A DNA stretch of 24,000 nucleotides from Marinospirillum alkalitolerans (GTDB taxonomy: Bacteria; Pseudomonadota; Gammaproteobacteria; Pseudomonadales; Halomonadaceae), in assembly GCF_045055655.1 (NCBI RefSeq), contig NZ_JBANFI010000003.1:151350-175349 (forward strand), given 5' to 3'. Both the position numbers and the translations under genes were made by a program. Under the pieces are notes generated by a model, which had not been told where the DNA came from, searched no databases, and worked only from the letters and a program-made list of their open reading frames with translations. This document shows, piece by piece, positions 2,306 to 20,398 of this stretch. Each line of letters begins with the position of its first letter. The stretch's first letter is position 1.

Positions 2306-3604
2306 ATGTCTCAGTTTTCTCGTCGTCAATTCTTAAAAGCCGGTGGTGCCGCAGGTCTACTTCCTCTGGTGGGTGGGTGTGCTGCTTTAGGTGCTCGTTC
2401 AGGCTCAGCCGGTCGGGTCGTGGTCATCGGTGGTGGCTTTGGTGGGGCCACAGCCGCCAAGTATCTGAAGCGCGGTAATCCACAAGTGGAGGTCACCTTG
2501 GTAGAACCCAAGCGTGTCTTCCACACCTGCCCTTTTTCAAATCTGGTGCTCGCTGGCGAGCGTTCGATGGACAGCATTGCGCACAACTATGATGAGCTGA
2601 AGCAGGTTTATGGCGTGCGCGTCATTCATGCAACAGCCACAGATGTCGATCCGGTTGCACAGCGAGTCGTGCTGTCGAATGGTCAGCGCTTAGACTATGA
2701 CCGTCTGCTGCTGTCACCTGGCATCTCGATGCGCTGGAACGAGATCGAAGGCTATGATGAAGCCGCGGCACAACTGGCTCCCCATGCTTGGCAAGCCGGC
2801 CCACAAACCGAGCTTTTGCGTCGTCAACTCGAAGCGATGGAAGATGGCGGCACCTTTGTCCTCAGCGTACCGGCAGACCCCTTCCGCTGCCCGCCCGGAC
2901 CCTATGAGCGTGCGAGCTTAATCGCGCATTACTTTAGCCAGCACAAGCCTCGCTCAAAGGTTCTGATCCTCGATGCCAAGGACAACTTCTCTAAGCAGGG
3001 CCTGTTTATGCAGGGCTGGCGTGAACTCTATGGTGATCGCATCGAATGGGTTGGCCGTGCTCAGGATGGCGAAGTCACCCGTGTGGATGCGACGCGCTTA
3101 GAAGTCGAAACCGAATTCGGCACGCGTCATCGCGCCAGCGTCCTGAATGTGGTGCCGCCACAAAAAGCAGGCTGGATTGCCGAACGCGCAGGCGTCACCG
3201 ATGCTTCTGGCTGGGTACCAGTGAAGGCCAATACCTTTGAATCTCAGCAGGTTGCCAATATCTATGTTGTTGGCGATGCCACTGTTGCCGCTCCAATGCC
3301 CAAATCTGGTTTTGCCGCCAATGCGCAAGGCAAGGTGGCCGCTGCCGCGATTCTGGCCTCACTGGGTGGCTTTGAGCCAGTTGATCCTTACTGGGCCAAC
3401 ACCTGCTATAGCCTGGTGGGTCCTGAGTATGGCATCACCGTTGCTGGTGTTTATCGTGCCGAAAACCAGCGCGTCATCAGTGTTCCCGGCTCAGGTGGTG
3501 TCAGCCCGATGGAGGCCAGTGCGCAGTTCCGCCGCAATGAGGCAGCCTATGCCGTTGGCTGGTATAATGCGATCAGCCAAGATACCTGGGGCACTCAGCT
3601 TTAA
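2306..3604 (+). CDS. fccB: Flavocytochrome c sulfide dehydrogenase flavoprotein subunit (FccB/SoxF-like), Tat-exported
   Basis: Start chosen at ATG 2306: GGAGAG RBS, and the product begins with a twin-arginine signal (MSQFSRRQFLKAGG). FAD dinucleotide fold VVVIGGGFGGATAAKY, a redox-cysteine region (FRCPPGPYERA) and VGDA near the C-terminus. The longer ORF-track start at 2198 would overlap the cytochrome gene. Confidence 0.85.
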   Translation: MSQFSRRQFLKAGGAAGLLPLVGGCAALGARSGSAGRVVVIGGGFGGATAAKYLKRGNPQVEVTLVEPKRVFHTCPFSNLVLAGERSMDSIAHNYDELKQVYGVRVIHATATDVDPVAQRVVLSNGQRLDYDRLLLSPGISMRWNEIEGYDEAAAQLAPHAWQAGPQTELLRRQLEAMEDGGTFVLSVPADPFRCPPGPYERASLIAHYFSQHKPRSKVLILDAKDNFSKQGLFMQGWRELYGDRIEWVGRAQDGEVTRVDATRLEVETEFGTRHRASVLNVVPPQKAGWIAERAGVTDASGWVPVKANTFESQQVANIYVVGDATVAAPMPKSGFAANAQGKVAAAAILASLGGFEPVDPYWANTCYSLVGPEYGITVAGVYRAENQRVISVPGSGGVSPMEASAQFRRNEAAYAVGWYNAISQDTWGTQL

Positions 3605-3640
3605 TGCACCGGCGTATCTCAGCCTGTTGAGCGGATCAAG

Positions 3641-3672
3641 AGCAAGGGATGGGAAACCATCTCTTGCTTTTT
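3641..3672 (+). terminator. Rho-independent terminator after fccB
   Basis: 12-bp stem AGCAAGGGATGG (3641-3652) / CCATCTCTTGCT (3657-3668) with one G-U pair and a GAAA tetraloop, running directly into TTTTT (3668-3672). Confidence 0.75.
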
Positions 3673-3729
3673 GCTCTTCTGATCAGCAGAAGATCCCAGC
3701 CTTCACCTTTGCTGCAAGTGAGACGCCTC

Positions 3730-4824
3730 ATGTCTGATTGGTTTGCTGACCTCATTGATCAACCGCAAGTGCTGCTGCTTTTGGGCATGGCACTGATCGG
3801 CATCGCCTATGGCCTGATTGCACAATGGAGCCGCTTCTGCCTGCTTCGAGGTCTGCTGCATCGCTGGCAACATCAGGATAGCCGTAAGTTACAAGCCTTT
3901 GCCCTCGCTATGGCGACCAGTCTGCTGTTCACTCAGCTGGCACGGGTTCTTTTTGATCTCGATCTTGATCGCAGCGTCTTTTTTCCACGCGATTTCTCAC
4001 CGCTGCTTGTGTTGCTCGGTGGGGTGATCTTTGGCTATGGCATGACGCTGGCCAACGCCTGCGGTGCGCGCAGTGTGGTCCTGCTGGCAAGCGGCAATCT
4101 GCGCTCGGCCGTCACCCTGCTGGCTCTGGCACTGGGCGCGGGCATGACCCTGTCCGGCATCTTAGCCCCCCTGCGCCTGCTACTGGATGGCCTGCCTCTG
4201 CCACGCCTCAGTGGTGTCACACTACCTGAACTGTTCGGCCTTGCATCCAGCTGGGCGATGGTGGTGTTGATCAGCCTCTTACTTTTGGTATTGCTGGCCT
4301 TCTGCTTTTTAAGCTGTCCCCGCTGCCGCACCTCTGGGCGACGCTTAGCCCTAGATGGACGCGATGCCCTCGGCGGCTTGAGTCTTGGCCTGCTGATCGC
4401 GCTCAGCTGGTGGTGGACAGGCTGGGCAGCGCAAGACCCCTTTCAACCTCAGGCCCCCTCAGCGCTGAGCTTTATCGCTCCCATTGCACAAACCCAGCAG
4501 TACCTACTGCTGTCCACAGGCAGCCGCCTAAATCTGGGGGTGGTCTTGGTTCTGGGTGTCTTCTGCGGCGCGCTGGTGCGGGCGCTGCTGGCGAAGGAGT
4601 TTCGCTGGCAAGGCTTTGATTCCACCCGCCAAACCCATTTTTCTTTGCTCGGTGGATTCATGATGGGTGTAGGCGGGGTACTGGCTTTGGGCTGTAGCGT
4701 GGGGCAAGGGCTGAGTGGCTTTTCCACTCTGGCACTGACCAGCTTCTTTGCACTGGCCGGCATTCTACTGGGTACCCGCTGGGCCATGCGCAGACACCTT
4801 TCTTCTTCTCACCCTTCATCATAG
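3730..4824 (+). CDS. YeeE/YedE-family inner-membrane sulfur (thiosulfate) transport protein
   Basis: About 364 aa, polytopic and hydrophobic. Shows the duplicated YeeE/YedE halves, each with conserved cysteine blocks (WSRFCLLRG, LANACGARS, ALGCSVGQG). Start set at ATG 3730 because the ORF-track ATG at 3649 lies inside the upstream terminator hairpin. Confidence 0.8.
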   Translation: MSDWFADLIDQPQVLLLLGMALIGIAYGLIAQWSRFCLLRGLLHRWQHQDSRKLQAFALAMATSLLFTQLARVLFDLDLDRSVFFPRDFSPLLVLLGGVIFGYGMTLANACGARSVVLLASGNLRSAVTLLALALGAGMTLSGILAPLRLLLDGLPLPRLSGVTLPELFGLASSWAMVVLISLLLLVLLAFCFLSCPRCRTSGRRLALDGRDALGGLSLGLLIALSWWWTGWAAQDPFQPQAPSALSFIAPIAQTQQYLLLSTGSRLNLGVVLVLGVFCGALVRALLAKEFRWQGFDSTRQTHFSLLGGFMMGVGGVLALGCSVGQGLSGFSTLALTSFFALAGILLGTRWAMRRHLSSSHPSS

Positions 4825-4838
4825 ATAGGATGTTGATC

Positions 4839-5612
4839 ATGCGATTGAATCTGCAACACTGGAGTCTTCTCAGCCTGCTTCTGCTGCTGATCTCTACCTC
4901 GGCAGCAGCAGCAACGCGCTTTGCCCCCGTCGAAGCCCTGCTCGAAGGCGCTACGCCTCAAACACAAGGGCTGACACTTGAACTCCCCTTAGTCGCAGAT
5001 AATGGGGCCTCAGTTGATCTGAGCCTCCGCTTTGATGCAGCCTTGGCGGAGGGAGATCAATTAGAATTCATCACCCTTTTTGCCACAGAGAATCCACGCG
5101 CAGATATCCTGCGGGCCAGTTTTTTGGATGCACGGGTTGAACCTCAGCTGTCCACACGGATACGCCTGAACCAAAGCCAAACCGTGATTGCCGTCGCGCG
5201 TAGCCAACAAGGCCAATTCTGGATCGCAGAACAGCAGGTACGAGTGACCGTCAGCGGCTGTTTGATCGGCGGCGATGAAACCCAGATCACCAGTATGCAG
5301 CAACCACGCATCGCGCTGCCGCGTCGTCTGCAAGCAGGCCGCAGCATCGATATCCGCACCCTGATCAACCACCCCATGGAAACAGGGCTCACTCAGGTAA
5401 TCGGCGAACCGCTACGCGCACAAAACCTGATTGAATCCTTCACCCTTGAGCTCGATCAGCAGCCAGCCTTGCATCTGGAGTTACACACAGGCGTCGCGGC
5501 CAATCCCTATTTCCGTTTTGGTCTGATCCTGCCAGCCAGTACGCAAGCTAGCTTTATCTGGCAGGATCAACAGGGCGAAATACTGCGTGAAGAACGCCAG
5601 CTGCAACTCTGA
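4839..5612 (+). CDS. Fused SoxY-SoxZ sulfur carrier protein (periplasmic, Sec signal)
   Basis: The N-terminal half matches SoxY blocks (LELPLVADNGASV, ENPRADI, LSTRIRLNQSQTVIAVA, VRVTVSGC). The C-terminal half matches SoxZ blocks (IDIRTLINHPMETG, AANPYFRFG). Signal peptide LLSLLLLLISTSAAAA. ATG 4839 is preferred (AGGA 8 nt upstream); ATG 4830 is an alternative start. Confidence 0.75.
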   Translation: MRLNLQHWSLLSLLLLLISTSAAAATRFAPVEALLEGATPQTQGLTLELPLVADNGASVDLSLRFDAALAEGDQLEFITLFATENPRADILRASFLDARVEPQLSTRIRLNQSQTVIAVARSQQGQFWIAEQQVRVTVSGCLIGGDETQITSMQQPRIALPRRLQAGRSIDIRTLINHPMETGLTQVIGEPLRAQNLIESFTLELDQQPALHLELHTGVAANPYFRFGLILPASTQASFIWQDQQGEILREERQLQL

Positions 5613-5735
5613 GCCGCGCATGTTTCAGTTAGGAGCAGATAACCAAACGCTCTAAGAAATAGCTTTGTTATAACTCGATCTCGATTTAAGCTGTCCCCTA
5701 TTCTTGAATAGGTCTACTTTTATCGGGGTCGAACC

Positions 5736-6773
5736 ATGCTAAAAACACACGCTCCACAGTCTTCTGCGCCATCACCTTTACAGCGCGTTAAAACCTTGAG
5801 TCTGGCTCTTCTGTTGGCCGGTACAGCCAGTGTGGCTCAAGCCTCTAGCCTGCTCAATTCTTCTTATGATGTTGCGCGTGAGCTGTTTGCCGATTACAAC
5901 GTCCTGTTCGCCGAGCACTGGCAAAACACCACAGGTGAAGCGATCGAAATCCGCCAGTCTCATGGTGGCTCTTCACGCCAGGCACAGGCCATTATTCAAG
6001 GTCTCAGAGCCGATGTGGTGACTTATAACCAGGTCACGGATATCGATATTCTGCATCAGCGCGGCAATCTCCTACCTGCCAACTGGCGTGAACTGCTGCC
6101 CAATGACAGCTCGCCTTACTACTCCACCATGGCCTTTTTAGTGCGTGCCGATAACCCACGCAATATTCAAGACTGGGATGATCTGGCCCGCAGCGATGTC
6201 AGCAGCGTCCTGCCAAACCCCAAAACCTCAGGCAATGGCCGCTACACCTATTTGGCCGCTCTCGGCTTTGCGCAGCAAACCTTTGGCGAGGATCAAGCAG
6301 CGATAGATACTTTTATGCGCGGCTGGCTGAATCGTGTTGCCGTGTTTGATACAGGCGGGCGCGGTGCCACCAATACCTTTGTTGAGCGCAATATCGGTGA
6401 TGTGTTGATCACCTTTGAATCCGAAATCCTCGGTATTATTGAAGCCTTCCCAGAGCAGCAGTTTGAAATTGTGGTGCCTTCGATTAGCTTTCGCGCCGAG
6501 TTTCCTGTCGCCGTTGTAGAGCGCCACGCACAGCGCAATGGCAATCTAGAACGCGCACGCGCTTATCTTGAGCACCTTTATAGCGAGGAAGCCCAGCAGC
6601 TTTTAGCGCGCTTTAACCTGCGTGTGCATCATCCTGAAGTCGCCGCCGCTCACCAAGATCGCTTCCAAGCCTTGCAGCTGCTGGGTATTGAAGACATCGC
6701 CGGTAGCTGGGAAGCCGCCATGCAGCACCACTTTGCCAATGGTGGCCAGCTGGATCAGTATCAGCGCCGCTAG
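5736..6773 (+). CDS. Sulfate/thiosulfate ABC transporter periplasmic substrate-binding protein (Sbp/CysP)
   Basis: 345 aa with a signal peptide. Strong block similarity to E. coli Sbp (LLNSSYDVARELF, QSHGGSSRQA, NPKTSGNGRY, FDTGGRGATNTFVERNIGDVLI, HFANGGQLDQ). First gene upstream of cysTWA. Confidence 0.9.
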   Translation: MLKTHAPQSSAPSPLQRVKTLSLALLLAGTASVAQASSLLNSSYDVARELFADYNVLFAEHWQNTTGEAIEIRQSHGGSSRQAQAIIQGLRADVVTYNQVTDIDILHQRGNLLPANWRELLPNDSSPYYSTMAFLVRADNPRNIQDWDDLARSDVSSVLPNPKTSGNGRYTYLAALGFAQQTFGEDQAAIDTFMRGWLNRVAVFDTGGRGATNTFVERNIGDVLITFESEILGIIEAFPEQQFEIVVPSISFRAEFPVAVVERHAQRNGNLERARAYLEHLYSEEAQQLLARFNLRVHHPEVAAAHQDRFQALQLLGIEDIAGSWEAAMQHHFANGGQLDQYQRR

Positions 6774-6784
6774 GACCCCCCTCC

Positions 6785-7639
6785 ATGCCTACCTTTTTGC
6801 ACAAGCATCTTCGCGTTCAGGGCAAGCAAGTCTTGCCCGGTTTCACCCTCAGCCTGGGGGTGTCACTGCTTTTTATCAGCCTGATTCTTCTGTTGCCGAT
6901 CACGGGTCTGATCGTACAAACCAGTAGCATGAGCTGGCAGGAATACTGGCAGGTGATTTCTGATCCTCGCGTTGTCGCCTCTTATCGCGTCACTTTTTTG
7001 ATGGCGCTCGGAGCGTCACTGATCAACGGGGTGCTGGGATTGCTGCTGGCCTGGGTCTTGGTGCGCTATCACTTTTTTGGCAAGCGCCTGATTGATGCGA
7101 TGATCGACCTGCCCTTTGCGCTTCCTACGGCGATTGCAGGCCTGACGCTGGTCACCTTGTTTGCAGAAAATGGCTGGTATGGCCAGCTGCTGTCTCAAGT
7201 CGGCATTCAGGTCGCCTATGCACCAGCCGGCATACTGGTGGCGATGCTGTTCACCAGCCTGCCGTTTGTTGTTCGCAGTGTGCAGCCTGTTCTTGAAGAT
7301 TTGGCACAAGAGGATGAAGAAGCGGCGCTCAGTTTAGGCGCGTCAGATTTGACTGTCTTTCGACGGGTGCTCTTTCCAGCACTCTGGCCAGCGCTGTTGA
7401 TGGGGGTGAGCCTGTCACTGATCCGCAGCCTGGGTGAGTTTGGTGCGATCATCTTTATTGCCGGCAATATGCCCTATCTGACCGAAGTAACCAGCTTGAT
7501 GATTTTTATTCGTCTCCAAGAGTTTGATTATGCGGCAGCCAGCGCCATCGCCTCGGTGATTTTATTGACGTCACTCACGGCACTGCTGCTGATCAATATC
7601 TGGCAAACCCGCTACTTAAAGCGTATTCAGGGGCGTTAA
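6785..7639 (+). CDS. cysT: Sulfate ABC transporter permease CysT
   Basis: 284 aa. N-terminus VLPGFTLSLGVSLLFISLILLLP resembles E. coli CysT. EAA loop [12 protein letters not shown]. Operon position. Confidence 0.9.
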   Translation: MPTFLHKHLRVQGKQVLPGFTLSLGVSLLFISLILLLPITGLIVQTSSMSWQEYWQVISDPRVVASYRVTFLMALGASLINGVLGLLLAWVLVRYHFFGKRLIDAMIDLPFALPTAIAGLTLVTLFAENGWYGQLLSQVGIQVAYAPAGILVAMLFTSLPFVVRSVQPVLEDLAQEDEEAALSLGASDLTVFRRVLFPALWPALLMGVSLSLIRSLGEFGAIIFIAGNMPYLTEVTSLMIFIRLQEFDYAAASAIASVILLTSLTALLLINIWQTRYLKRIQGR

Positions 7640-7640
7640 T

Positions 7641-8537
7641 ATGGATTCCTCCACTCTCAGCCCACCCAGTGCAAGCAGCGTGAAGCCGCAGAAAAAAACC
7701 AGCAAGGCGCAAGGCCAGCGCGTGGGTGATCAGCCCTGGCTGCGTCGCTTGCTGATTGGCCTGGTCTTGCTGGCTGTTTTTTTACTGCTGGTGATGCCAC
7801 TGATTGCGATTTTTGTGCAGGCATTCAGTGCGGGCTGGTCCGGTTTTTGGACGAACCTCACCGATCACTACACCCTACACGCCATCGGACTGACTCTACT
7901 GGTCGCCGCCCTGACGGTACCGATCAATCTAGTCTTTGGTGTCCTGCTGGCTTGGCTGGTAACCCGCTTTGATTTTATCGGGCGCAAGCTGCTGATGACG
8001 CTGATTGATATTCCCTTTGCCGTCTCGCCGGTGGTCGCTGGTTTGATCTATCTGCTGCTCTACGGCAGTCAAGGCTGGCTCGGTGGCTGGTTGATGGACC
8101 ATGACCTACAAATCATGTTCGCCTGGCCGGGCCTGGTGCTGGTCACGGTGTTTATCACCTGCCCTTATGTGGCACGTGAGCTGATTCCGCTGATGCAGCA
8201 ACAGGGTTCAAGCGAAGAAGAAGCGGCGCTGAGCCTTGGTGCCAGTGGCTGGCAGATGTTTCGCCGAGTCACGCTGCCCAATATCCAATGGGCCTTGTTA
8301 TATGGCGTCATTTTAACCAATGCCCGTGCGGTGGGAGAATTTGGCTCGGTCTCGGTGGTATCAGGCAGTATTCGCGGTGAGACCAACACCCTACCCCTGC
8401 ATGTTGAGCTGTTGTACCAGGATTATAATCTCGTCGGTGCCTTTACCAGCGCCGCCCTGCTCGCCTGCCTCGCGCTGATCACGCTTGCCGCGAAGGCTTG
8501 GCTGGAGCAACGTCAAATGAAAGAGGTCGAGTCATGA
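7641..8537 (+). CDS. cysW: Sulfate ABC transporter permease CysW
   Basis: 298 aa polytopic protein with EAA loop [17 protein letters not shown]. Starts 1 nt after the cysT stop. The 4-nt ATGA overlap with cysA indicates translational coupling. Confidence 0.9.
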
Positions 8538-9667
8538 GCATTCGGATTCAACAAGTCAGTAAATCCTTTGGATCTTTCCAAGCCCTGCATCCACTGAATC
8601 TGGATATCCAGGATGGCGAAATGGTCGGACTGCTCGGTCCTTCTGGCTCAGGCAAAACCACGCTGCTGCGCATGATCGCCGGTTTAGAAAGCTGCGATAC
8701 AGGGAAAATTTTCTTTCAGGATCAAGAAGTCACCCGCCAGCATGTGCGCGACCGCCGCGTTGGCTTTGTGTTTCAGCACTATGCCCTGTTCAAGCATATG
8801 ACCGTGGCCGAGAATATTGCCTTTGGTCTGGATGTGCTGCCCAAATCCCAGCGGCCACCACAGCAGGAGATTCAGCGTCGCGTCAGTGAGCTGTTGGAGC
8901 GCATTCAGCTCCCCCATCTGGCCCAACGCTACCCCACTCAGCTCTCTGGTGGTCAGAAGCAGCGTGTGGCGCTGGCTCGGGCGCTGGCCATGCAGCCACG
9001 CGTGCTGCTGCTCGATGAGCCCTTTGGCGCTTTGGATGCGAAGGTGCGTAAAGAGCTGCGCCGCTGGCTGCGTGAACTCCATGACGAGCTGGGTTTTACC
9101 AGTGTTTTTGTCACCCATGATCAGGAAGAAGCGCTCGAAGTCTCCGATCGTGTAGTGGTGATGAGCCAAGGACGCATCGAGCAGCAGGCTACGCCGCAGG
9201 AACTCTATCATCAGCCAGCCTCACGCTTTGTGTATGACTTTTTAGGTCAGGTCAATATCTTCTCTGGGCAGGTGCAAGGCAAGAAGATGTCTCAGGGCGA
9301 AGCCTGGATCGAACTGCCTCACCCTCTCAAAGCTGAGCAAGGTGAAGTCTTTCTGCGCTCGCATGAGCTGGCCCTCAGCCGCGAGCCAGTGCAAAAGGCC
9401 CATCTGCCCATGCAGATCAATGCCATCAACCTGATCGGTGCCGAAGTCCGCCTTGAACTGCTACCGCAAGGCTGGTCCAGCGCCGAACCCTGGGAAGTGG
9501 CCATCAGCCATCAGGACTTTAATAGCTGGCAGCCACAAAGGGGTGATCGCTGCTTCCTGCGTCCTCTGGCGGGCCAGTTTTTTGCCGCTGCAGAGGCCAG
9601 CGTAACGCCAGCAGGACCTGAGCCGCTGAACTGGTCATCTTCCACAAGAATTTCACTAGCGAGTTAA
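8534..9667 (+). CDS. cysA: Sulfate/thiosulfate import ATP-binding protein CysA
   Basis: Start at ATG 8534 ([12 protein letters not shown]). Walker [13 protein letters not shown] signature LSGGQKQR, Walker B LLLDEPF, H-loop VTHD, and a C-terminal TOBE-like regulatory domain. Confidence 0.9.
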
Positions 9668-9714
9668 CAGGGGATGCGTTAGATTGCCCACTCAGTCTCA
9701 CTTTCTTGAGGATA

Positions 9715-10044
9715 GGCTCAGCGCGTCAACTACCCCAGCCTGAAGGCAGGAGTTTGTGAAAGCAAGCTAGGTTGACCAGGGAAAGCGGCAACCAATCCGC
9801 TACGTTAGCAATAGGTCGTGAAGACCCACCAGCGAATGCTTCCTCAGTTCGCTGCTCTGGAAGAACAGGATCATGCTGGCGCAAGGTAAAACGCCGAAGG
9901 TTCTGTTCGCCACTTCTTTTAAGAAGTGGGAGCCGATTGCTGACTTTCCCGAGGGGAGACAGGGCGTAAGCCCTGCGTCACTAGAACCCGTAAGGGCTGA
10001 ATTTAAAGTTTGAAGGCTTGAAAGTTGAATAGCGGAGAAACAGC
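9715..10044 (+). ncRNA. Candidate IscB omegaRNA (HEARO-type scaffold); the 5' boundary and guide are not resolved
   Basis: 377-nt gap with no credible ORF, directly upstream of and co-oriented with iscB. Densely packed stem-loops: 9784-9801, 9814-9826, 9830-9854, 9863-9908 (enclosing 9878-9895), 9910-9929, 9945-9959, 9961-9974 (GTAA loop), 9987-9996 (GTAA loop). The blocks GACCAGGGAAAGCGGCAACCAATCCGCTAC and TTTCCCGAGGGGAGACAGGGCGTAAGCCCTGCG resemble, from memory, conserved parts of published IscB omegaRNAs. Confidence 0.7.
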
Positions 10045-11400
10045 ATGGCTGTTTTTGTACTGGACAAGCGTAAAACACCACTGATGCCCTGCTCTGAAAA
10101 ACGAGCACGGCAGCTATTAGTGCGTGGGCGTGCAGTGGTACACAAAGTGCGCCCCTTCACGATTCGCTTGAAAGATCGACTGGCCGCTGACTCCACTTTT
10201 CAGCCACTACAGACCAAGATTGATCCAGGCAGCAAAATCACGGGCTTAGCGGTAGTGCGCGAAGATGAACAGCAGCCCGAAAGACAGGTCGTGCTCTGCT
10301 TGTTTGAGCTGATTCATCGTGGATTTCAAATCAAGCAAGCCTTAGAGCAGCGTCGTGCTTTTCGCCGCCGCCGTAGAAATCAGCTCCGCTACCGTGCTGC
10401 GCGTTTTGATAATCGCACCAAGCCCAAAGGTTGGCTGGCTCCAAGCTTACAGCATCGGGTGGATACGACAGTAGATTGGGTGCAGCGGATCATAAAATTA
10501 ACCCCGATCACCAGCATTCAGCAAGAGCTGGTGCGCTTTGATACGCAGAGGCTCGATAATCCCGAGATCAGCGGCGTGGAGTATCAGCAAGGCACTTTGC
10601 TGGGCTATGAAGTGCGCGAGTATCTTTTGGAAAAGTGGGGCCGTGCATGTGCTTACTGCGGCACCCAAGACGTGCCACTCCAGATTGAGCATATTCACCC
10701 GAAAAGCCAAGGTGGATCAAATCGCATCAGTAATTTGACGCTGGCCTGCCACCAGTGCAATCAAGCCAAGAATAATCAGCCGATTGCAGTCTTTTTTGAG
10801 CAGGACAAAGGCTTAAAGCGCCGCTTGAAGAAACAGGGTCTCTCGGCTGAAAAGCAGCTGGGCCGTGTACTGAAGCAATGTAAAAAGCCACTGAAAGATG
10901 CAGCTGCGGTGAATGCGACTCGCTGGGCATTGTTGAATGCACTCAAGCAAATAGATCTACCTGTTTTAACAGGCACTGGCGGCCAAACAAAATTCAATCG
11001 CCAGCGCCTTGGTATACCAAAAACTCACGCGCTGGATGCGGTTTGCGTAGGCCAGATTGAACAGATTGAAGGCTGGCAGCGACCCACCTTAACGATCAAG
11101 GCATCAGGAAGGGGCTGCTATCAGCGCACTCGCTTAGATCGTTTTGGCTTCCCTCGCGGTTACTTGATGCGCCAGAAAAGCGTGCAAGGTTTTCAAACGG
11201 GTGATTTGGTGAAGGCCGAGGTACCATCAGGCAAGAAGGCGGGTATTCACACGGGTCGTGTCGCTATCAGAAAAACAGGCAGTTTTAATATCCAGCTTCC
11301 TGATCAGATTATTCAGGGCATCAGCTGGAAATATTGCCGAATGCTTCAACGTGGTGATGGCTATGGCTACCACCAAACTTCAACAGTTCTAAGAACATAA
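10045..11400 (+). CDS. iscB: IscB: RNA-guided DNA endonuclease of the IS200/IS605 (ISC) family, the Cas9-ancestor type (PLMP + split RuvC + bridge helix + HNH + C-terminal TAM-interaction-like domain)
   Basis: 451 aa. PLMP motif at residues 12-15. RuvC-I IDPGSKITGLAVV (D60). Arg-rich bridge helix QRRAFRRRRRNQLRYRAARFDNR...GWLAPSL. RuvC-II QQELVRFD (E161). HNH with zinc knuckles CAYCG...IEHIHP...SNL...CHQCN (C202/C205, H216, N230, C235/C238). RuvC-III THALDA (H328, D331). C-terminal GFQTGDLV...GRVAIRKTGSFNI barrel. GGAG RBS 7 nt upstream. Confidence 0.9.
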   Translation: MAVFVLDKRKTPLMPCSEKRARQLLVRGRAVVHKVRPFTIRLKDRLAADSTFQPLQTKIDPGSKITGLAVVREDEQQPERQVVLCLFELIHRGFQIKQALEQRRAFRRRRRNQLRYRAARFDNRTKPKGWLAPSLQHRVDTTVDWVQRIIKLTPITSIQQELVRFDTQRLDNPEISGVEYQQGTLLGYEVREYLLEKWGRACAYCGTQDVPLQIEHIHPKSQGGSNRISNLTLACHQCNQAKNNQPIAVFFEQDKGLKRRLKKQGLSAEKQLGRVLKQCKKPLKDAAAVNATRWALLNALKQIDLPVLTGTGGQTKFNRQRLGIPKTHALDAVCVGQIEQIEGWQRPTLTIKASGRGCYQRTRLDRFGFPRGYLMRQKSVQGFQTGDLVKAEVPSGKKAGIHTGRVAIRKTGSFNIQLPDQIIQGISWKYCRMLQRGDGYGYHQTSTVLRT

Positions 11401-11419
11401 AGGAGAAGCGAGAACAGGT

Positions 11420-11453
11420 AAAACGAGACCTCTATCAAGGTTACGTTTTCCAC
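11420..11453 (+). terminator. Hairpin + T-run downstream of iscB (terminator and/or subterminal transposon-end hairpin)
   Basis: Imperfect 12-bp stem AAAACGAGACCT (11420-11431) / AGGTTACGTTTT (11438-11449), 10 of 12 paired, with loop CTATCA. The 3' arm ends in TTTT. Located 20 nt after the iscB stop. Confidence 0.4.
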
Positions 11454-11485
11454 TCTGAGCTAAAGCACGGAGTTTCTCGCGTAAA

Positions 11486-13750
11486 ATGATGAAATTTCGT
11501 TTCCCCGTCATCGTGGTCGATGAAGATTTTCGTTCAGAAAATATTTCTGGTTCCGGTATTCGTGATCTCGCCGAAGCCATAGGTAAAGAAGGCATGGAGG
11601 TCGTGGGCTACACCAGCTATGGTGATCTCACGGCCTTTGCGCAGCAGGCCAGCCGCGCGTCCTGTTTTATTGTCTCCATTGATGACGAGGAATTTTCCGA
11701 TGAGGAAGAGGGTGTCGATCGTGCTTTAGAGCAGATTGGCAGCTTTATTCGTGAAGTGCGCAAGCGCAATCATGATATCCCTATCTTTCTGTACGGCGAA
11801 ACGCGCACCTCGCGCCATATTCCGAATGCCATCCTGCGTGAACTGCATGGTTTTATCCATATGTTTGAGGATACGCCTGAGTTTGTGGCACGGCATATTA
11901 TTCGTGAAGCCAAAAAATACCTTGATGCGCTGGCACCGCCCTTTTTTACTGCGCTGATGGACTATGCCAGCGACTCCTCCTACTCCTGGCACTGCCCAGG
12001 ACATTCAGGGGGGGTGGCCTTTCTAAAAAGCCCCGTCGGGCAGATGTTCCACCAGTTCTTTGGTGAGAATATGCTGCGTGCTGATGTCTGTAACGCCGTC
12101 GATGAACTGGGCCAGCTGCTTGATCACACCGGCCCAGTTGCCGACAGTGAGCATAATGCGGCGCGGATTTTTGGTTGTGATCACCTGTTCTTTGTCACCA
12201 ATGGCACCTCGACTTCAAACAAGGTGGTCTGGCACTCCACTGTCGCCCCTGGAGACGTGGTGGTGGTTGATCGCAACTGCCATAAATCGATTCTGCACTC
12301 CATCATCATGACGGGGGCGATTCCTGTCTTTTTGATGCCCACACGCAACCACTACGGCATTATTGGCCCCATCCCGAAGAGTGAATTTGATCCGGCCACG
12401 ATACGTGCCAAGATCGAAGCCAATCCCTTCGCACGCCATGCCGTCAATAAGGACAAGCCACGGATTCTGACCATCACCCAATCTACCTATGATGGTATTC
12501 TCTACAATGTGGAAGAGATCAAAGCCCAGCTGGGTCAGACCATCGATACGCTGCATTTTGATGAAGCCTGGCTGCCTCACGCTGCTTTTCATCCCTTCTA
12601 CAAGGATATGCATGCCATCGGTGCCGATCGTCCGCGTTCGGAAGAAACACTGGTCTTTGCGACCCAATCGACCCACAAGCTGCTGGCGGGTCTTTCTCAA
12701 GCGTCACAAATTCTGGTCCAAGATAGCCAAACCCGTCAGCTGGATCGCCATCGCTTCAATGAATCCTATCTGATGCACTCCTCCACCAGCCCCCAGTACG
12801 CGATTATTGCTTCCTGCGATGTGGCAGCAGCGATGATGGAAGAACCCGGTGGGCAAGCCCTGGTCGAAGAATCCATTCATGAAGCCATCGACTTCCGCCG
12901 CGCGATGCGCAAGGTCGATGCTGAATTCGGTGATGATGACTGGTGGTTTACTGTCTGGGGTCCAGAAGAACTCGCGGAAGAAGGCATAGGTGATCGAGAT
13001 GCCTGGGTGATTCATTCCGGAGATACCTGGCATGGTTTTGGGGACATCAAAACCGGCTTTAATATGCTCGATCCCATTAAAGCCACCATCATCACCCCCG
13101 GATTGGATGTCGATGGTAACTTTGATGCTCAGGGTATTCCTGCGGCGATTGTCAGCAAGTATCTGGCAGAGCACGGCATTATCATCGAAAAAACCGGCCT
13201 CTACTCCTTCTTCATCATGTTTACCATTGGCATTACCAAAGGCCGCTGGAATTCAATGGTGACTGAGCTCCAGCAGTTCAAAGATGACTATGATCGCAAC
13301 CAGCCGATCTGGCGGGTGATGCCTGAATTTGCCGCGCGCCATCCTCAGTATGAGAAAACGGGGCTGCGCGATTTATGCCATGCGATCCATCAGGTGTACA
13401 AGGAGTACAACCTGGCCCGCATCACCACTGATATGTATCTGTCCAATATCGAGCCTGCGATGCTGCCTGCCGAAGCCTGGGCGAAGATGGCGCACCGTCA
13501 GGTTGAGCGTTGCCCAATCGATGCCCTTGAAGGCCGTGTTACGGCGATGCTGGTCACCCCCTACCCGCCCGGCATTCCACTGCTGATTCCCGGCGAGAAG
13601 TTTAATGCCACCATCGTGCGCTATCTGAAGTTTGTACGTGATTTCAACCAGCGCTTTCCTGGCTTTGAAACCGATGTACATGGTCTGGTGCATGAAGAAG
13701 TCAACGGCGTGGATGGCTACTATGTTGATGTGGTGCAAGAAGCGCCCTGA
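11486..13750 (+). CDS. Orn/Lys/Arg decarboxylase family, PLP-dependent, large wing-domain type (LdcA-like lysine decarboxylase)
   Basis: 754 aa. N-terminal response-regulator-like wing (FPVIVVDEDF), SYSWHCPGHSGGVAF, PLP-lysine motif FATQSTHKLLAG, and C-terminal PYPPGIPLLIPGE. From memory, end-to-end resemblance to Pseudomonas LdcA. Substrate (Lys versus Arg) is not resolvable by eye. Confidence 0.85.
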   Translation: MMKFRFPVIVVDEDFRSENISGSGIRDLAEAIGKEGMEVVGYTSYGDLTAFAQQASRASCFIVSIDDEEFSDEEEGVDRALEQIGSFIREVRKRNHDIPIFLYGETRTSRHIPNAILRELHGFIHMFEDTPEFVARHIIREAKKYLDALAPPFFTALMDYASDSSYSWHCPGHSGGVAFLKSPVGQMFHQFFGENMLRADVCNAVDELGQLLDHTGPVADSEHNAARIFGCDHLFFVTNGTSTSNKVVWHSTVAPGDVVVVDRNCHKSILHSIIMTGAIPVFLMPTRNHYGIIGPIPKSEFDPATIRAKIEANPFARHAVNKDKPRILTITQSTYDGILYNVEEIKAQLGQTIDTLHFDEAWLPHAAFHPFYKDMHAIGADRPRSEETLVFATQSTHKLLAGLSQASQILVQDSQTRQLDRHRFNESYLMHSSTSPQYAIIASCDVAAAMMEEPGGQALVEESIHEAIDFRRAMRKVDAEFGDDDWWFTVWGPEELAEEGIGDRDAWVIHSGDTWHGFGDIKTGFNMLDPIKATIITPGLDVDGNFDAQGIPAAIVSKYLAEHGIIIEKTGLYSFFIMFTIGITKGRWNSMVTELQQFKDDYDRNQPIWRVMPEFAARHPQYEKTGLRDLCHAIHQVYKEYNLARITTDMYLSNIEPAMLPAEAWAKMAHRQVERCPIDALEGRVTAMLVTPYPPGIPLLIPGEKFNATIVRYLKFVRDFNQRFPGFETDVHGLVHEEVNGVDGYYVDVVQEAP

Positions 13751-13780
13751 GCAGCCCCTCTCTGACTCTTAGCCACAAAA

Positions 13781-13804
13781 AAACCCTCGCAAGAGGGTTT
13801 TTTT
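13781..13804. terminator. Bidirectional intrinsic terminator between the convergent decarboxylase and deaD genes
   Basis: AAACCCTC (13781-13788) GCAA GAGGGTTT (13793-13800), flanked by an A-run upstream and a T-run downstream, so a hairpin followed by a U-tract forms on both strands. Confidence 0.8.
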
Positions 13805-13887
13805 ATGACCTATTTTAAGCCTGCTGGGTGGCGAGCTGAACTCCACACCCAGCGCTCAAGGGCAATGATGCCCTTGGCTGACGCCAT

Positions 13888-15618
13888 TTAGGCTGAAGCT
13901 GGGCGACGACGCAGTGGACGACGGCCAGCGTCATCTTCTGCAGCACGTGGCGCACTGCTGCCACCGGCTGAGCTGCTCAGGTTCATCGGTACACCACAGA
14001 TGCGTACGCGGGCCAGCGCCTGGAATACAGCCTTCGGCATGCCTTCTGGCAGATCGACGGTGCTGAAATCCTGTTGAATATCAATACGGCCAATGTTACG
14101 GCTAGAGATATTCGCTTCGTTGGCAATCGCTCCAACGATATTGGCTGGCTTGACACCATGCGAGCGGCCAATCGGCATACGGTAGCGCTTCATGCCTGCT
14201 TCTGGATCACGCGAACGTCCACGCGGGCCAGCAGCATCACGGCGACCACGGCCACCAGCATCATCTTCACGACGAGGACGATCACGCATCGGGCGCGGCT
14301 TCACTTCTTCAACCCACAAAGGCGTGTTGCCTTGGAACATCTTGGCCAAAGCGGCCGCAATGCGCAGCGGATCGGTATCGGTTTCGCTGTGGACTTCTTG
14401 CAGCAGCTTCTCGTACTGTTCGATATCACGAGCTTGCAAAGAGTGAATGATCTGCTCTTTAAAGCGCTCACTGCGCTTGGCATTGATCAGTTCCGCCTTT
14501 GGCAGCTCCATAGGCTCAATGCGCTGACCTGTACTGCGCTCAAGGTTGAACAGCAAACGCTTTTCGCGCTGAGTAACAAAAAGAATCGCCTGACCGCTCC
14601 GGCCCGCACGACCTGTCCGGCCAATACGGTGCACATAAGACTCGCTATCATGGGGCGGATCAAAGTTGATAACGTGGCTGATGCGTTCAACATCCAGACC
14701 ACGCGCGGCCACATCGGTCGCGACCAGAATATCCAACTGGCTCTTCTTTAACTTATCCACAGCCTGTTCGCGCTGCGCCTGTGCCATATCACCATGTAAA
14801 GCACTGGCACGGAAGCCACGGCTATTCAGGAAATCGGCCAGATCAGCACAGCTGGCTTTGGTACGGGTGAAGATGATGATGCCATCTGTGGCTTCAGCTT
14901 CAAGAATCCGCGTCAGGGCTTCAGGCTTCGGCAGACCGTTGACCATCCACACTCGCTGAGTGACGGTATCAGCGGTACGCGCTTTTGCCGCAATACGCAC
15001 TTCTTTAGGATCTTTGAGGTGACGCTGGGCAATGCGGCGGATCATCTCTGGCATGGTCGCCGAGAAGAGCACCACTTGACGCTCAGCTGGCGTCTGCTCA
15101 AGAATCCACTCCACATCATCAATAAAGCCCATACGCAGCATTTCGTCGGCTTCATCCAGCACCAGTGTTTTCAGCTGAGAAATATCCAGGCTGCCACGAC
15201 GCATATGGTCCATCACACGGCCAGGCGTACCGACTACGATCTGTGCGCCAGATTTCAGGGCACGCATCTGCTCGCGGTATTCTGCGCCACCGTAAAGGTT
15301 AGCCACCTTCACGCCTTTCATGTTCGCGCCATATTTTTCAACGGATTCGGCAACCTGCATCGCCAATTCACGCGTTGGTGCCAAAACTAAAACCTGAGGT
15401 GAACGTGCGTTCACATCTAGGCGGGCCAATAAAGGAAGAGAAAAGGCCGCTGTTTTGCCCGTCCCGGTTTGGGCCTGGCCTAATAAATCGTGTCCTTCCA
15501 GCAGCAGAGGAATCGTCTGTGCCTGGATAGGAGAAGGTTGGTTGTATTCAATAGCAGAAAGCAAAAAATCAGGAAGACCCAGCTCGTTAAAAGCGGGCAA
15601 ATTCGCGTCAGTAGACAT
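13888..15618 (-). CDS. deaD: ATP-dependent DEAD-box RNA helicase DeaD/CsdA
   Basis: Start taken at ATG 15618 (MSTDANLPAFNELGL). Q-motif PSPIQ, motif I AQTGTGKT, DEAD, SAT, HRIGRTGRAG. The Arg/Asp-rich linker and the C-terminal DbpA-type RNA-binding domain (GAIANEANISSRNIGRIDI) align well with E. coli DeaD. Confidence 0.9.
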   Translation of the reverse strand: MSTDANLPAFNELGLPDFLLSAIEYNQPSPIQAQTIPLLLEGHDLLGQAQTGTGKTAAFSLPLLARLDVNARSPQVLVLAPTRELAMQVAESVEKYGANMKGVKVANLYGGAEYREQMRALKSGAQIVVGTPGRVMDHMRRGSLDISQLKTLVLDEADEMLRMGFIDDVEWILEQTPAERQVVLFSATMPEMIRRIAQRHLKDPKEVRIAAKARTADTVTQRVWMVNGLPKPEALTRILEAEATDGIIIFTRTKASCADLADFLNSRGFRASALHGDMAQAQREQAVDKLKKSQLDILVATDVAARGLDVERISHVINFDPPHDSESYVHRIGRTGRAGRSGQAILFVTQREKRLLFNLERSTGQRIEPMELPKAELINAKRSERFKEQIIHSLQARDIEQYEKLLQEVHSETDTDPLRIAAALAKMFQGNTPLWVEEVKPRPMRDRPRREDDAGGRGRRDAAGPRGRSRDPEAGMKRYRMPIGRSHGVKPANIVGAIANEANISSRNIGRIDIQQDFSTVDLPEGMPKAVFQALARVRICGVPMNLSSSAGGSSAPRAAEDDAGRRPLRRRPASA

Positions 15619-15901
15619 CAATAATACCTGTGGTACAGAGGGAACGCAGAGGCGGGCGCGGGCCCGATACACAATTAAGGAAGGGCAACGACAGCCTGAT
15701 GCAGGGAATAGCCGTTCAGGGCTATCACATAAGAAGCGGGATTATAGCAGCCTTCTTCACACAAAGCCAAGTAAAGTCGCATTGAAAAAACCACTTCTGT
15801 GCTCGAGCGCAGCACAACAGGTACAGGGCTGCAGAAAAAGGCAAAGAAAAGGCAGCTAGAGGCACCTTCTCAGCCTATCCGTCTCAACAGCGGCGAGTAG
15901 A

Positions 15902-15931
15902 CTTATAAAAACTGCGTTTTTTATGATGCAA
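15902..15931 (-). promoter_or_regulatory. Tentative sigma70 promoter for deaD (implies a leader of about 280 nt)
   Basis: On the minus strand: TTGCAT (15931-15926), 18-nt spacer, TATAAG (15907-15902). Found by hexamer matching only. Confidence 0.25.
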
Positions 15932-16072
15932 ATGATGTTACTTTCGCAACTGCCCCTGTATTATGACGCATCAAGTTGACATGTTTTTGGGCATCCTGCC
16001 ATTGAAGAAAAGGGATTCTTACCCTGTAGCACCCGAATCTTTTCTTCTCTGCTGATCACCAGAGGACTCCTT

Positions 16073-18988
16073 ATGTCTTGGCTTCATACAAGCCGCCATA
16101 CCTTGCTCCTGACTCTTGGCTACCTTTTGACCTTCTGGTGCGCTCTGTCACTGAATGCCGCCTTGCCTGCTTTTTTCTTTTCCGTTTGGTTGCCCAGTGG
16201 GCTGGCTCTGGCCGGTGTCTTGCATTTTGGTTATCGCGCTTTATATGGTATTGCACTGGGGGCCTTGCTTGCCCATTTTTCACTGGCGCTTCTCACTCCC
16301 GCGCCTCTGCTAGAGTGGCCCAACCTGATCAGCGCTTTATTACTCAGTGCAACGGCAACAGGACAGGCCGCAGCCGGTCGGTGGCTGATTCTGCGACTTC
16401 AAGCCCATCCACTGAAAACATCCGAAAAAGGCAGCCTGATCCGTTTTTTTCTGTGGCCAGTCTTGTCACTTGCCGCTATCCACAGCTTGATGGATAGCCT
16501 GATATTGGCCCACCTCTTTGGTGATCCGCAGCTCAACCCGCTGATTTTCTGGTTCGGCTACTGGGCTGGCGAGGTGCTGGGATTGGCCTTGCTCACCCCC
16601 CTGCTGTTGATTGCGCTGCACTGGCGCAGCCAAACCCAGCCTAGCCGCCATCTGCAATCGACCCTCTATCAGCTGGGTGGCAGTCTGGCGTTTATTCTGC
16701 TGCTGCATCAGCTGCTACTGGTGCAGTTCACTCAGCAGGCACAGGAGCGCTTCAATCAGGATGTCGCGCTGCTCGATACCCAGTTACATCGCCTCTTCCA
16801 GCAGAATCTGGCTGATCTGAGCCAACTCGAACGCAGTTTTACCCGCCACTCTTCCGCACTGACCCCTTCTTTGTTTCGTGAGCTGACGCTTCCCATCTTG
16901 GCCAGCAATCCTTCTGTACTCGCCTACTCATGGGACCCTTTGGTGCATCAGCAAGAGCAAGCCGCTTTTGAGCAGCTCACACGCGCACTGCTCGGGCAGG
17001 AAGACTTTGCCATCTATGGTGCAGCACTGGATGAGCGCGACCCGTTAATCGTGGTGCAATTTGTGGAGCCACGTGCCACCAATCAAGAAGCCTTGGGCTT
17101 TAATCTGATGTCACTCGATGATCGGCGCGATTGGATTCTGCTGGCCCAATCCAGCGGACGTCCAGTGAATACCGATATTCTGCGTCTCACTCAGGCACCA
17201 GACGAGCCAGGTTTTCTGATCCTACAACCGGTTTACACCACCCAGTCCACCCAAGATCAGCAGTCGCCTTTAGAAGGCCAAAAAAGCCTGGTGGGTTTTA
17301 TGGCTGGGGTCTTTACCGTCAATCGCATGATTGAAGCCGCGCTGAGCGCCAGCCAACTACAAGCACTCAATCTACAGGCCTATCAAAACCGAGCGACAGC
17401 AGCCTTCTATCAATGGCAAGATTCTCAGGGCGGGTTAGATCGACTTCCCCTGTCATCCAGTCAACGCTTTAGCACCCAGTTCGCCTTACAGCTGGGCGAT
17501 CAGCAATGGCAGCTTCATATCCAATCCACACCTGAATATCTGGCTCTTCAGGCACAACAGCATCTACTGCTTTTTCATGCTTTGTTGTGCCTCAGTGCTT
17601 TTTTAGCCTGTGGCCTTGCCCTGCATCGTTATCAGCGCGAAGGCGAACTGGCAACGCGCGTACAGCAACAAACCCAGAAACTCAGCTTTCAGGCTCACCA
17701 TGATGCGCTGACCGGGCTTCCTAATCGCATCAGCTTAGAAAATGATATTCAACGCCAACTCAGCCAACCCTGCCCCCATCTGGCGTTGATCTTTATTGAT
17801 CTGGATCGCTTTAAACTGATCAATGACAGCCTAGGACATTTAACTGGCGATCATCTATTAATCGAGCTTTCTGCACGCTGGCAACAAGAAACCCAGCAGC
17901 ACTTTGCCCATTCTGCCAGCGAGGTCACCTTTTATCGTTTAGGTGGAGATGAATTCGCCTTGTTACTCAGCGCACCCGCTTTACAGCAGTGCCGTACTGA
18001 AGCCGAACAACTGAGCCTGCGCCTGCTTGAGCTGAGCCGCCACCCCATGCAGATAGATGGCTTGGTCTTACAAACCAGCATCAGCCTTGGCTTGGCGTGG
18101 ACGCCCGATCATGGACTGGATTTCAATAGCCTGGTACGCAATGCCGATACAGCCCTGCATCAGGCCAAGCGTTTGGGCAAGAACACCTACCAGATTTATC
18201 AACAAGCACAAACAGAGCAGATGCTGCGTGATTTTGAGCTAGAGCAGGAACTGCGCTTGGCGCTGAATACGCAACAAATCCAGCTGCATTATCAACCTCA
18301 ATATCACCTGACCACACGCGAACTCTGCGGACTGGAGGCACTGGTGCGCTGGCAGCACCCTGTGCGCGGTATGATTCGACCTGATCACTTTATCCCACTG
18401 GCCGAAGAAACCCAGATGATTATTCCCTTGGGTTGGCAGGTGCTTGATCAGGCTTGTCGTCAAACAGCGCAATGGTTGGAAGAGGGCTATCAAGTGCCCT
18501 GCGTAGCGGTCAATATCTCGCCTTTGCAGCTCTTGCAGGCTGACTTTATCGAGCAGCTGAATCTGCTGGTGGATTCCTATGGCCTACACCGTCAACGCCT
18601 CGAACTGGAAATCACCGAGAACCTGTTGCAGCAAAACCCAGACTTTGCCTTTCAGCAACTCAAATCACTGCGCCTCGCTGGCTATCGCCTTGCGCTGGAT
18701 GATTTTGGTACTGGCTATTCATCGCTGAATCGACTCAAGCTGATGCCACTGGATCGCATCAAAATAGATAAGAGCTTTATTCGTGATATCGGCAAAAACA
18801 CCAAGGATGATGCAATTATCCTCAGTATTATCAACCTGGGTCATAGCCTGGGTGTTGAGGTCTTGGCCGAAGGTGTCGAAACCGCACAACAAGATCGCTT
18901 CCTGCGTCATCATGGCTGCGATACGATGCAGGGTTATCTGCTTGGTCGGCCTGTGGCACAGCCTGAACTGCAGCGCCGCACTGGCTAA
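16073..18988 (+). CDS. Membrane sensor with MASE1 + CHASE + GGDEF + EAL domains (bifunctional c-di-GMP cyclase/phosphodiesterase)
   Basis: 971 aa. Multi-TM N-terminus typical of MASE1. A periplasmic CHASE-like block (AYSWDPLV...FVEPRATNQEALGFNL...ILQPVY) followed by a TM helix. GGDEF domain with an intact RLGGDEF site. EAL domain with EALVRW, ELEITEN, DDFGTGYSS, KIDKSF, EGVET and QGYLLGRP. Confidence 0.85.
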   Translation: MSWLHTSRHTLLLTLGYLLTFWCALSLNAALPAFFFSVWLPSGLALAGVLHFGYRALYGIALGALLAHFSLALLTPAPLLEWPNLISALLLSATATGQAAAGRWLILRLQAHPLKTSEKGSLIRFFLWPVLSLAAIHSLMDSLILAHLFGDPQLNPLIFWFGYWAGEVLGLALLTPLLLIALHWRSQTQPSRHLQSTLYQLGGSLAFILLLHQLLLVQFTQQAQERFNQDVALLDTQLHRLFQQNLADLSQLERSFTRHSSALTPSLFRELTLPILASNPSVLAYSWDPLVHQQEQAAFEQLTRALLGQEDFAIYGAALDERDPLIVVQFVEPRATNQEALGFNLMSLDDRRDWILLAQSSGRPVNTDILRLTQAPDEPGFLILQPVYTTQSTQDQQSPLEGQKSLVGFMAGVFTVNRMIEAALSASQLQALNLQAYQNRATAAFYQWQDSQGGLDRLPLSSSQRFSTQFALQLGDQQWQLHIQSTPEYLALQAQQHLLLFHALLCLSAFLACGLALHRYQREGELATRVQQQTQKLSFQAHHDALTGLPNRISLENDIQRQLSQPCPHLALIFIDLDRFKLINDSLGHLTGDHLLIELSARWQQETQQHFAHSASEVTFYRLGGDEFALLLSAPALQQCRTEAEQLSLRLLELSRHPMQIDGLVLQTSISLGLAWTPDHGLDFNSLVRNADTALHQAKRLGKNTYQIYQQAQTEQMLRDFELEQELRLALNTQQIQLHYQPQYHLTTRELCGLEALVRWQHPVRGMIRPDHFIPLAEETQMIIPLGWQVLDQACRQTAQWLEEGYQVPCVAVNISPLQLLQADFIEQLNLLVDSYGLHRQRLELEITENLLQQNPDFAFQQLKSLRLAGYRLALDDFGTGYSSLNRLKLMPLDRIKIDKSFIRDIGKNTKDDAIILSIINLGHSLGVEVLAEGVETAQQDRFLRHHGCDTMQGYLLGRPVAQPELQRRTG

Positions 18989-18990
18989 GA

Positions 18991-19126
18991 AACCTCTGAT
19001 TAACTACTGTGCTTGGTGATGCTACGTTAAAATTGGTCTCAAAATGCTCATTTACTCCGCGTAAACTCCGCTTTTTCGATCAATTTTGCCTTGCCTGACC
19101 TGCGCTCGTGACGTTGATCAGAGGTT
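18991..19126. repeat. Nested inverted-repeat element (about 136 bp) in the GGDEF-EAL / RND intergenic region
   Basis: Outer inverted repeat AACCTCTGATTAAC (18991-19004) versus GTTGATCAGAGGTT (19113-19126), 13 of 14 complementary. Inner inverted repeat AAAATTGGTC (19029-19038) versus GATCAATTTT (19078-19087), 9 of 10. The core contains TTTAC-TCCGC-GTAAA and a T5 run. Confidence 0.5.
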
Positions 19127-19271
19127 CCCTAAAGTGGAACACCTCGCTCTGGTTTAGGTCAAAGAGTCGGCCACGACACTGACATAGAATCGAGACAAGT
19201 CAATGCTAGACTCGATTCCCAAGCTGCTCGATGCGCCTCTTTTTGTTCTGCTTGCTACAAGGAATGCTGTT

Positions 19272-20396: not shown

Positions 20397-20398
20397 TC

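Follow-up and report, generated by a model that had tools for sequence, protein, structure and literature searches.

A solo IscB–omegaRNA element inserted at the start codon of a decarboxylase gene in Marinospirillum alkalitolerans, and the start-codon bias of related elements

Gene organization of the locus

The window analysed here, a stretch of 24,000 nucleotides of the M. alkalitolerans genome, contains an omegaRNA–iscB pair between cysA, the last gene of sbp-cysTWA, and an Orn/Lys/Arg decarboxylase gene (Table 1), as a first-pass annotation had recognized from the sequence. The short gap that it described downstream of the cysA stop was also found, although its exact length is 57 nt rather than about 50 and it consists of host DNA; this native cysA–decarboxylase gap now lies 5′ of the omegaRNA. 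The element itself occupies 9725–11488 instead of the proposed 9668–11485, reaching 3 nt past the noted end. Elsewhere in the window (4830–5612), SoxY and SoxZ domains are fused in a single ORF, which belongs to a sulfide dehydrogenase/YeeE/sbp-cysTWA cluster.

Table 1. Features of the cysA–decarboxylase interval (window coordinates).
Feature	Position	Strand	Description	Evidence
cysA (sulfate ABC ATPase)	8534..9667	+	stop 9665-9667	TIGR00968 above cut-off
Promoter-like motif of decarboxylase gene	9657..9685	+	-35-like 9657-9662, 17-nt spacer, -10-like TAGATT 9680-9685	
Former decarboxylase 5′ leader	9692..9724	+	SD-like GAGGATAGG 9708-9716	adjoins ATG in empty allele
Whole ISC element	9725..11488	+	1,764 bp, termini GT...TG	exact empty site in G007 and four runs
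omegaRNA scaffold	9725..9960	+		Rfam HEARO RF02033, 109 bits, gathering 83
SD-like GGAG of iscB	10034..10037	+	7 nt 5′ of iscB ATG	sequence
iscB	10045..11400	+	451 aa, intact	NF040563, 449.7 bits against cut-off 175
Inner imperfect hairpin, right end	11420..11453	+	not the boundary	DNA fold z -2.6
Subterminal right-end hairpin and terminal AAAATG	11452..11488	+		aligns with right ends of related elements
Target motif/predicted TAM ATGAAA	11489..11494	+	first two decarboxylase codons	empty allele and 12/12 orthologues examined
Orn/Lys/Arg decarboxylase, AAT-fold	11489..13750	+	753 aa, intact, single copy	

Model position 1 of RF02033 coincides with the first inserted base, and additional hairpins 3′ of the HEARO match reach about 10000; at gathering level, the window has no other Rfam match than HEARO, and no group I intron match was obtained. 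The IscB ORF contains the Pfam domains RRXRR and HNH and retains all nuclease and catalytic motifs: PLMP at residues 12–15, RuvC-I D60, the Arg-rich bridge helix at 103–111, RuvC-II E161, HNH E215/H216 with CxxC pairs, and RuvC-III H328/D331. Its nearest solved structures are IscB proteins, and Cas9d and Cas9 profiles match it weakly. Both element ends align with the conserved hairpin ends of relatives, the right-end hairpin, with a TAAA loop and GGAG in its 3′ arm (11469–11472), being visibly diverged; for the terminal hairpins the fold is not better than that of shuffled sequences, and no terminal inverted repeats appear among the repeats listed for 9725–11488. Mapping the true ends brought no adjacent tnpA to light, the 1,764 bp enclosing the omegaRNA and iscB only.

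An exact empty allele places the insertion at a start codon

Alignment to relatives without the insertion, which the first-pass annotation had recommended, yielded the exact ends, the target motif and the guide. The congener G007, 94–96% identical over the flanks, aligns to 8225–9724 and resumes gaplessly at 11489. The same 9724→11489 joint, skipping 1,764 nt with GT..TG ends, is present in Logan contigs of four public runs (three samples from three studies, covering alkali sediment, soda lake and animal gut), and the element is bounded at 9725 and 11488 because congener and runs skip exactly this interval. Carriage of the element at this site is thus not general among relatives: empty alleles exist in a congener and in natural populations. 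Relative to G007 and the four runs there is no target duplication at the 9724/11489 joint, and the filled and empty alleles are identical across the last 54 nt of the leader. No filled-allele contig spanning the locus was found in the four runs. In run X2, a contig in which a related right end is linked to 30 nt from the start of the decarboxylase gene misses the bridging rule by one letter and is a hint only.

The empty site reads leader...CAGCGC|ATGAAA. The element was inserted between the SD-like GAGGATAGG of the decarboxylase gene and its ATG, so that the target motif is the start codon and the leader abuts the omegaRNA. The true host ATG is that at 11489 in 12 of 12 orthologues examined, and the in-frame ATG at 11486, from which the first-pass annotation had measured 85 nt back to the iscB stop, is contributed by the terminal AAAATG of the element; the host ATG is 88 nt from that stop.

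The sequence GTTAGATT stands 45–49 nt 5′ of the decarboxylase ATG in six congener genomes with differing upstream genes, among which only the host genome and G007 have cysA as the upstream neighbour, and a TRGTCA hexamer lies 17 nt 5′ of TAGATT in three of the six. Judged by this conservation, the motif is probably the decarboxylase gene's own sigma70-type promoter, with a leader of about 33 nt whose start at 9692 is inferred from the -10-like motif. The promoter-like motif is now directed into the element, and cysA is a possible second source of read-through transcription.

According to the IscB model as given in the consulted parts of one report (10.1101/2023.03.14.532601), the omegaRNA guide comes from outside the element and transcription must begin outside; by this model, the leader at 9692–9724 is the predicted 5′ guide segment of the omegaRNA. 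The first-pass annotation had expected a guide that matches the empty-site junction, and the left flank followed directly 3′ by the putative TAM ATGAAA does reproduce the empty site. The 8-nt seed plus ATGA is absent from the whole genome, and hence no self-target is predicted.

Comparison with known elements

The closest known elements are ISC2 with the described N|ATGA target (Kapitonov, Makarova and Koonin 2016, PMC4810608; ISC1-1_MA of Microcystis and proteobacterial families). Like them, the element is iscB-only, falls in the 1.3–1.8 kb class, begins with 5′-GT, lies directly 5′ of ATGA without target duplication, has ends that align with the subterminal hairpin ends of relatives and would need a Y1 TnpA in trans; unlike the autonomous ISC2Y (iscB plus tnpA), it is missing tnpA. 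By its sequence, which settles the family, it is a non-autonomous ISC2 (IscB/omegaRNA, IS200/IS605 superfamily) with an N|ATGA target. It is an element of a known, ordinary kind, probably recently inserted, and docking on a start codon is the less ordinary part: the term ‘start codon’ has no occurrence in the ISC2 paper (PMC4810608), whereas the target is a start codon here and in about 70% of relatives.

Several features are shared with ISGst5/GstIscB of Geobacillus stearothermophilus, as far as the consulted parts of Meers et al. (10.1101/2023.03.14.532601) describe it: the measured TAM, TTCAT, reads ATGAA on the opposite strand, as found here, and in both cases the predicted guide is encoded outside the boundary and transcription would have to start outside. 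Retention by cleavage of the donor joint, demonstrated in that work for TnpB, is a further predicted likeness. The passages searched report an orientation bias relative to the upstream gene and contain neither SD–ATG docking nor an effect on the downstream gene; furthermore, GstTnpA is present in the Geobacillus genome, whereas only a deleted tnpA was found here. IStrons (IS605/IS607 TnpB with a group I intron; 10.1101/2023.11.20.567912) likewise reside in transcribed host genes and must limit damage, but the element described here avoids it by its position before the ORF rather than by splicing, and has no group I intron match. With CRISPR-associated IscB/Cas9 (type II) it shares the RuvC, bridge helix and HNH architecture and differs in that iscB has neither an array nor cas genes nearby; the type II locus of the genome lies on another contig.

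Copy number, helper transposase and the question of domestication

The host assembly (99.7% complete, 44 contigs) contains one iscB and one HEARO, and the genome-wide search suggested by the first-pass annotation returned no further copies of either end and no MITE derivatives. As that annotation had stated, there is no Y1 transposase in the 24-kb window; a simple repeat scan gave no CRISPR-like array on this contig, and no cas genes lie near iscB. An intact tnpA was not found in the 44 contigs (an unassembled one could still exist). The only Y1 match in the genome is a tnpA remnant next to tnpB on contig C2, which keeps about 10 N-terminal residues and residues 108–138 (87% to an intact congener TnpA) and is missing the HUH part. 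Since the only tnpA found is internally deleted, the element is non-autonomous and probably stranded. A solo state is itself normal for IscB, given that tnpA is nearby in about 1.5% of iscB genes in the figures available from 10.1101/2023.03.14.532601.

The C2 locus (approximately 427165–428650) is an IS605 element with an intact tnpB of 411 aa and a tnpA that has lost about 95 internal codons in frame; three more tnpB genes in the genome have no adjacent tnpA. Intact Y1 genes occur in four congeners. In genome G006 (L125:1313–1390), an intact IS200-type tnpA has behind it an end that closely resembles the ISC right end but borders on ATCAA instead of ATGA, and this tnpA is a candidate for the helper family.

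Sister elements occupy other sites in G006 and in Nitrincola schmidtii, the sister iscB of G006 being 86% identical over its first 197 aa. One of them (L017:885, contig C167 of G006) apparently lies just 5′ of the stop of an upstream ORF, which now runs six codons into the element; the geometry would fit an ATGA stop or a stop/start overlap as the insertion site, with the right end off the contig. The host genome also carries a CRISPR-Cas9 locus unlinked to iscB (contig C10:30784–36156), with a cas9 of 1,076 aa, then cas1- and cas2-size ORFs, and 13 repeats of 36 nt with 30-nt spacers; it looks type II-C, and none of its spacers matches the window. The host therefore has both Cas9 and IscB.

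The first-pass annotation had allowed two readings of the solo state, non-autonomy or domestication, and only the former agrees with these data. A host-serving IscB, acting for instance in RNA-guided regulation of the decarboxylase gene or the sulfate operon, would suit a single, helperless copy with an intact ORF and a guide that matches a host leader. It is contradicted by a site that is empty in the closest genome and in natural populations, by the failure to find iscB in 11 of the 12 congeners searched and by intact nuclease residues. Nuclease-dead repressors such as the TldR-like ones differ in each respect, as here the catalytic residues are kept, the locus is not fixed and the genome holds no target elsewhere, the seed-plus-TAM sequence being absent; both ends are intact as well, and sister elements lie at other sites. 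Domestication is accordingly very improbable, and the copy is most likely stranded.

Expression of the decarboxylase from the filled allele

The insertion left no host DNA directly 5′ of the decarboxylase gene, its promoter-like motif, leader and SD having been moved 1,764 bp to the left end of the element; the view that the gene has very little upstream DNA of its own was right in direction and understated. A consensus scan of 9500–11600 gave one promoter-like site, located within iscB, where 1.3 would be expected. Between the cysA stop and the decarboxylase gene, no terminator-like site was called on the + strand. A promoter within the right end, one of two routes suggested at first, was rejected since the scan found none there, which makes read-through, the other, the likelier route to the decarboxylase.

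Beyond the iscB stop, the old tail persists in another frame, ending on TG|A. A relay ORF or stop/start coupling was rejected for this copy, as that frame is without ATG, GTG or TTG; most Halomonas- and Chromatiaceae-type ends likewise lack a canonical start in the TG|A frame. What is left for initiation is the extra in-frame ATG in an A-rich context and a GGAG 13–16 nt upstream within the end hairpin. The latter was rejected as a replacement SD, being distant and paired; the anti-SD duplex score, a crude measure, is -5.9 for the element end and -6.0 for the native leader. Five relatives (L010, L012, L013, L014 and L015) natively start the decarboxylase from AAAACTG|ATGAAA, so the context of the window's copy may suffice. 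This native sequence resembles ISC right ends, which could be coincidental or a trace left by an earlier insertion there.

The decarboxylase scores below every NCBIfam cut-off and differs from that of G007 by 86 synonymous codons and one non-synonymous codon; lysA was the only further gene of the Orn/Arg/DAP decarboxylase fold to be found. An intact, single-copy and conserved gene fits continued use, a comparison that does not date this relative to the insertion. In genome G026 (L016), the orthologue is preceded by ORFs whose N-termini we take to resemble spermidine synthase and SAM decarboxylase, and these neighbours suggest a polyamine role with an Orn/Arg substrate.

In an alkali-sediment metatranscriptome (run X6), the omegaRNA bins reach depths of 3,546–21,078 compared with 4–123 elsewhere, and omegaRNA-like depth over 9669–9950 is far above the flanks and the matching DNA run, summed over many organisms. 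The joined contig of this run is the empty allele, which makes the depth uninformative on the window's copy; it hints only that this RNA family is abundant there.

Start-codon bias across related elements

Related elements lie on start codons far above chance. For 80 related elements from named genomes, the ends were placed by the conserved right-end motif and the empty sites rebuilt, giving 71 distinct sites; the elements are kin and the sites separate events, and the genes underlying the null were called with a simple ORF script rather than a gene finder. ATGA is directly 3′ of most of these elements, and the target ATG opens at least 100 codons at 50 of the 71 sites. By a strict rule, 40 of 67 were on a start compared with 10.7% of the ATGA sites in the same flanks (P=3 × 10−22). 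Because insertions into coding sequence are purged, the null was tightened: the proportion was 35 of 46 against 29–34% of non-disruptive (start-or-intergenic) sites and, under the strictest null, 37 of 45 against 46–49% of start-or-co-directional-intergenic sites (P=8 × 10−7 to 5 × 10−6). In a TAM-blind pattern scan of metagenomes, 45 of 52 matches had ATGA next to the pattern or one base further on, and 17 of 25 scorable ends abutted an ATG that opens 100 codons or more; within the host family, six of nine elements were on such start codons.

The ORFs downstream are recognizable genes. Pfam searches of 20 of them returned known families, several from the first model positions, with N-terminal matches to RuvA (1–62), ACP phosphodiesterase (1–179), Pth (from residue 4) and ArgRS (from residue 6). 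The targeted genes include ArgRS, Pth, FabH, UbiA, NAD synthase and RuvA, the first five of which are usually essential. Furthermore, a terminal TG in 56 of the 71 elements forms a TG|A stop across the host ATG. In 29 of the 71, iscB ends with a stop codon that shares 1 or 4 nt with the host start, as is typical of translationally coupled genes. The SD excess in the left flanks of relatives is weak (-4.6 against -3.2, P=0.02, n=45). Derivatives of about 40–430 bp with ISC-type ends and without iscB, mostly followed by ATGA, were also seen (L138, L141, L145, L148, L156, L158 and L195), and at L141 and L145 the upstream ORF terminates on the element's TG|A.

The bias could be a survivor effect, in which the insertion knocks the host gene down or out, start codons are simply the ATGA sites at which an insertion does least harm, and the element end is unadapted. 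The window's copy would fit this, being uncoupled and having a poorly placed, paired SD, as would the lack of a stop/start overlap in about half of the related elements, the failure of the four runs to give a filled-allele contig across the locus, and the few elements without an iscB match that are also on starts. Yet the bias survives a null restricted to non-disruptive, co-directional sites, usually essential genes are among those targeted, and TG|A ends (56 of 71) and iscB stops fused to the host ATG (29 of 71) are frequent; at the locus itself, the decarboxylase is intact and nearly without non-synonymous change relative to G007, a state undated with respect to the insertion, and lysA is the only other gene of this fold found. 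We regard this explanation as unlikely, though of appreciable weight.

Alternatively, the bias could be set at insertion, with TnpA meeting single-stranded ATGA most readily just behind promoters (transcription bubbles or R-loops), regardless of later selection for expression of the guide. Three of five right ends without an iscB match are on an ATG opening 95–140 codons, which points this way, and Meers et al. (10.1101/2023.03.14.532601), in the parts consulted, leave undecided whether the preference lies in generation or retention. Those five are few, however; most have a left end that was not mapped, and they may have arisen from iscB elements by deletion in place. A TnpB control with the same ATGA target was not recovered from 52 metagenome loci and five multi-copy genomes. 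On balance, an origin of the bias at insertion seems rather doubtful.

Discussion

The data are likely to be explained as a whole by a recent, non-autonomous N|ATGA insertion with promoter capture, read-through, retention by cleavage and a stranded copy. A Y1 TnpA acting in trans, either that of the C2 IS605 element before its deletion or an incoming one, would have pasted the element in. The decarboxylase promoter would then transcribe the leader as guide together with omegaRNA and iscB and, by read-through, the decarboxylase gene, which is probably still translated at a reduced level from the A-rich ATG-ATG end without stop/start coupling. Leader-guided IscB would cut the empty allele at the leader plus ATGAAA, and recombination would restore or spread the element; without a helper, the present copy would be stranded.

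For the family, we consider it somewhat more probable than its opposite that ATGA-targeting IscB elements are adapted start-codon parasites, which capture a promoter and leader, leave the host ORF whole and in many cases pass ribosomes on through TG|ATG. As the motif shared by TnpA and IscB would be the start codon itself, each insertion would take over a host promoter together with a 5′ leader that can serve at once as guide. We found no paper noting a start-codon bias of IscB in a literature search whose reach did not extend to Altae-Tran 2021 and Weinberg 2009; the present analysis adds an exact empty allele, counts against selection-aware nulls and a case without coupling.

Such start-codon parasitism, if real, would parallel the IStron strategy without splicing, and it would account for the orientation bias already known for iscB. 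A position between SD and ATG would answer two open issues, how transcription of an outside guide is secured and how hosts tolerate the insertions, and it explains mis-called starts such as 11486 instead of 11489 here. The window's copy, which lacks the overlap and has an exact empty allele, is well suited to a test: with filled and empty alleles that match, promoter capture, expression of the downstream gene and homing can all be tested directly. Native IscB guides are predicted to be mostly 5′ leaders with SD sequences, and such insertions would retune host genes, essential ones included.
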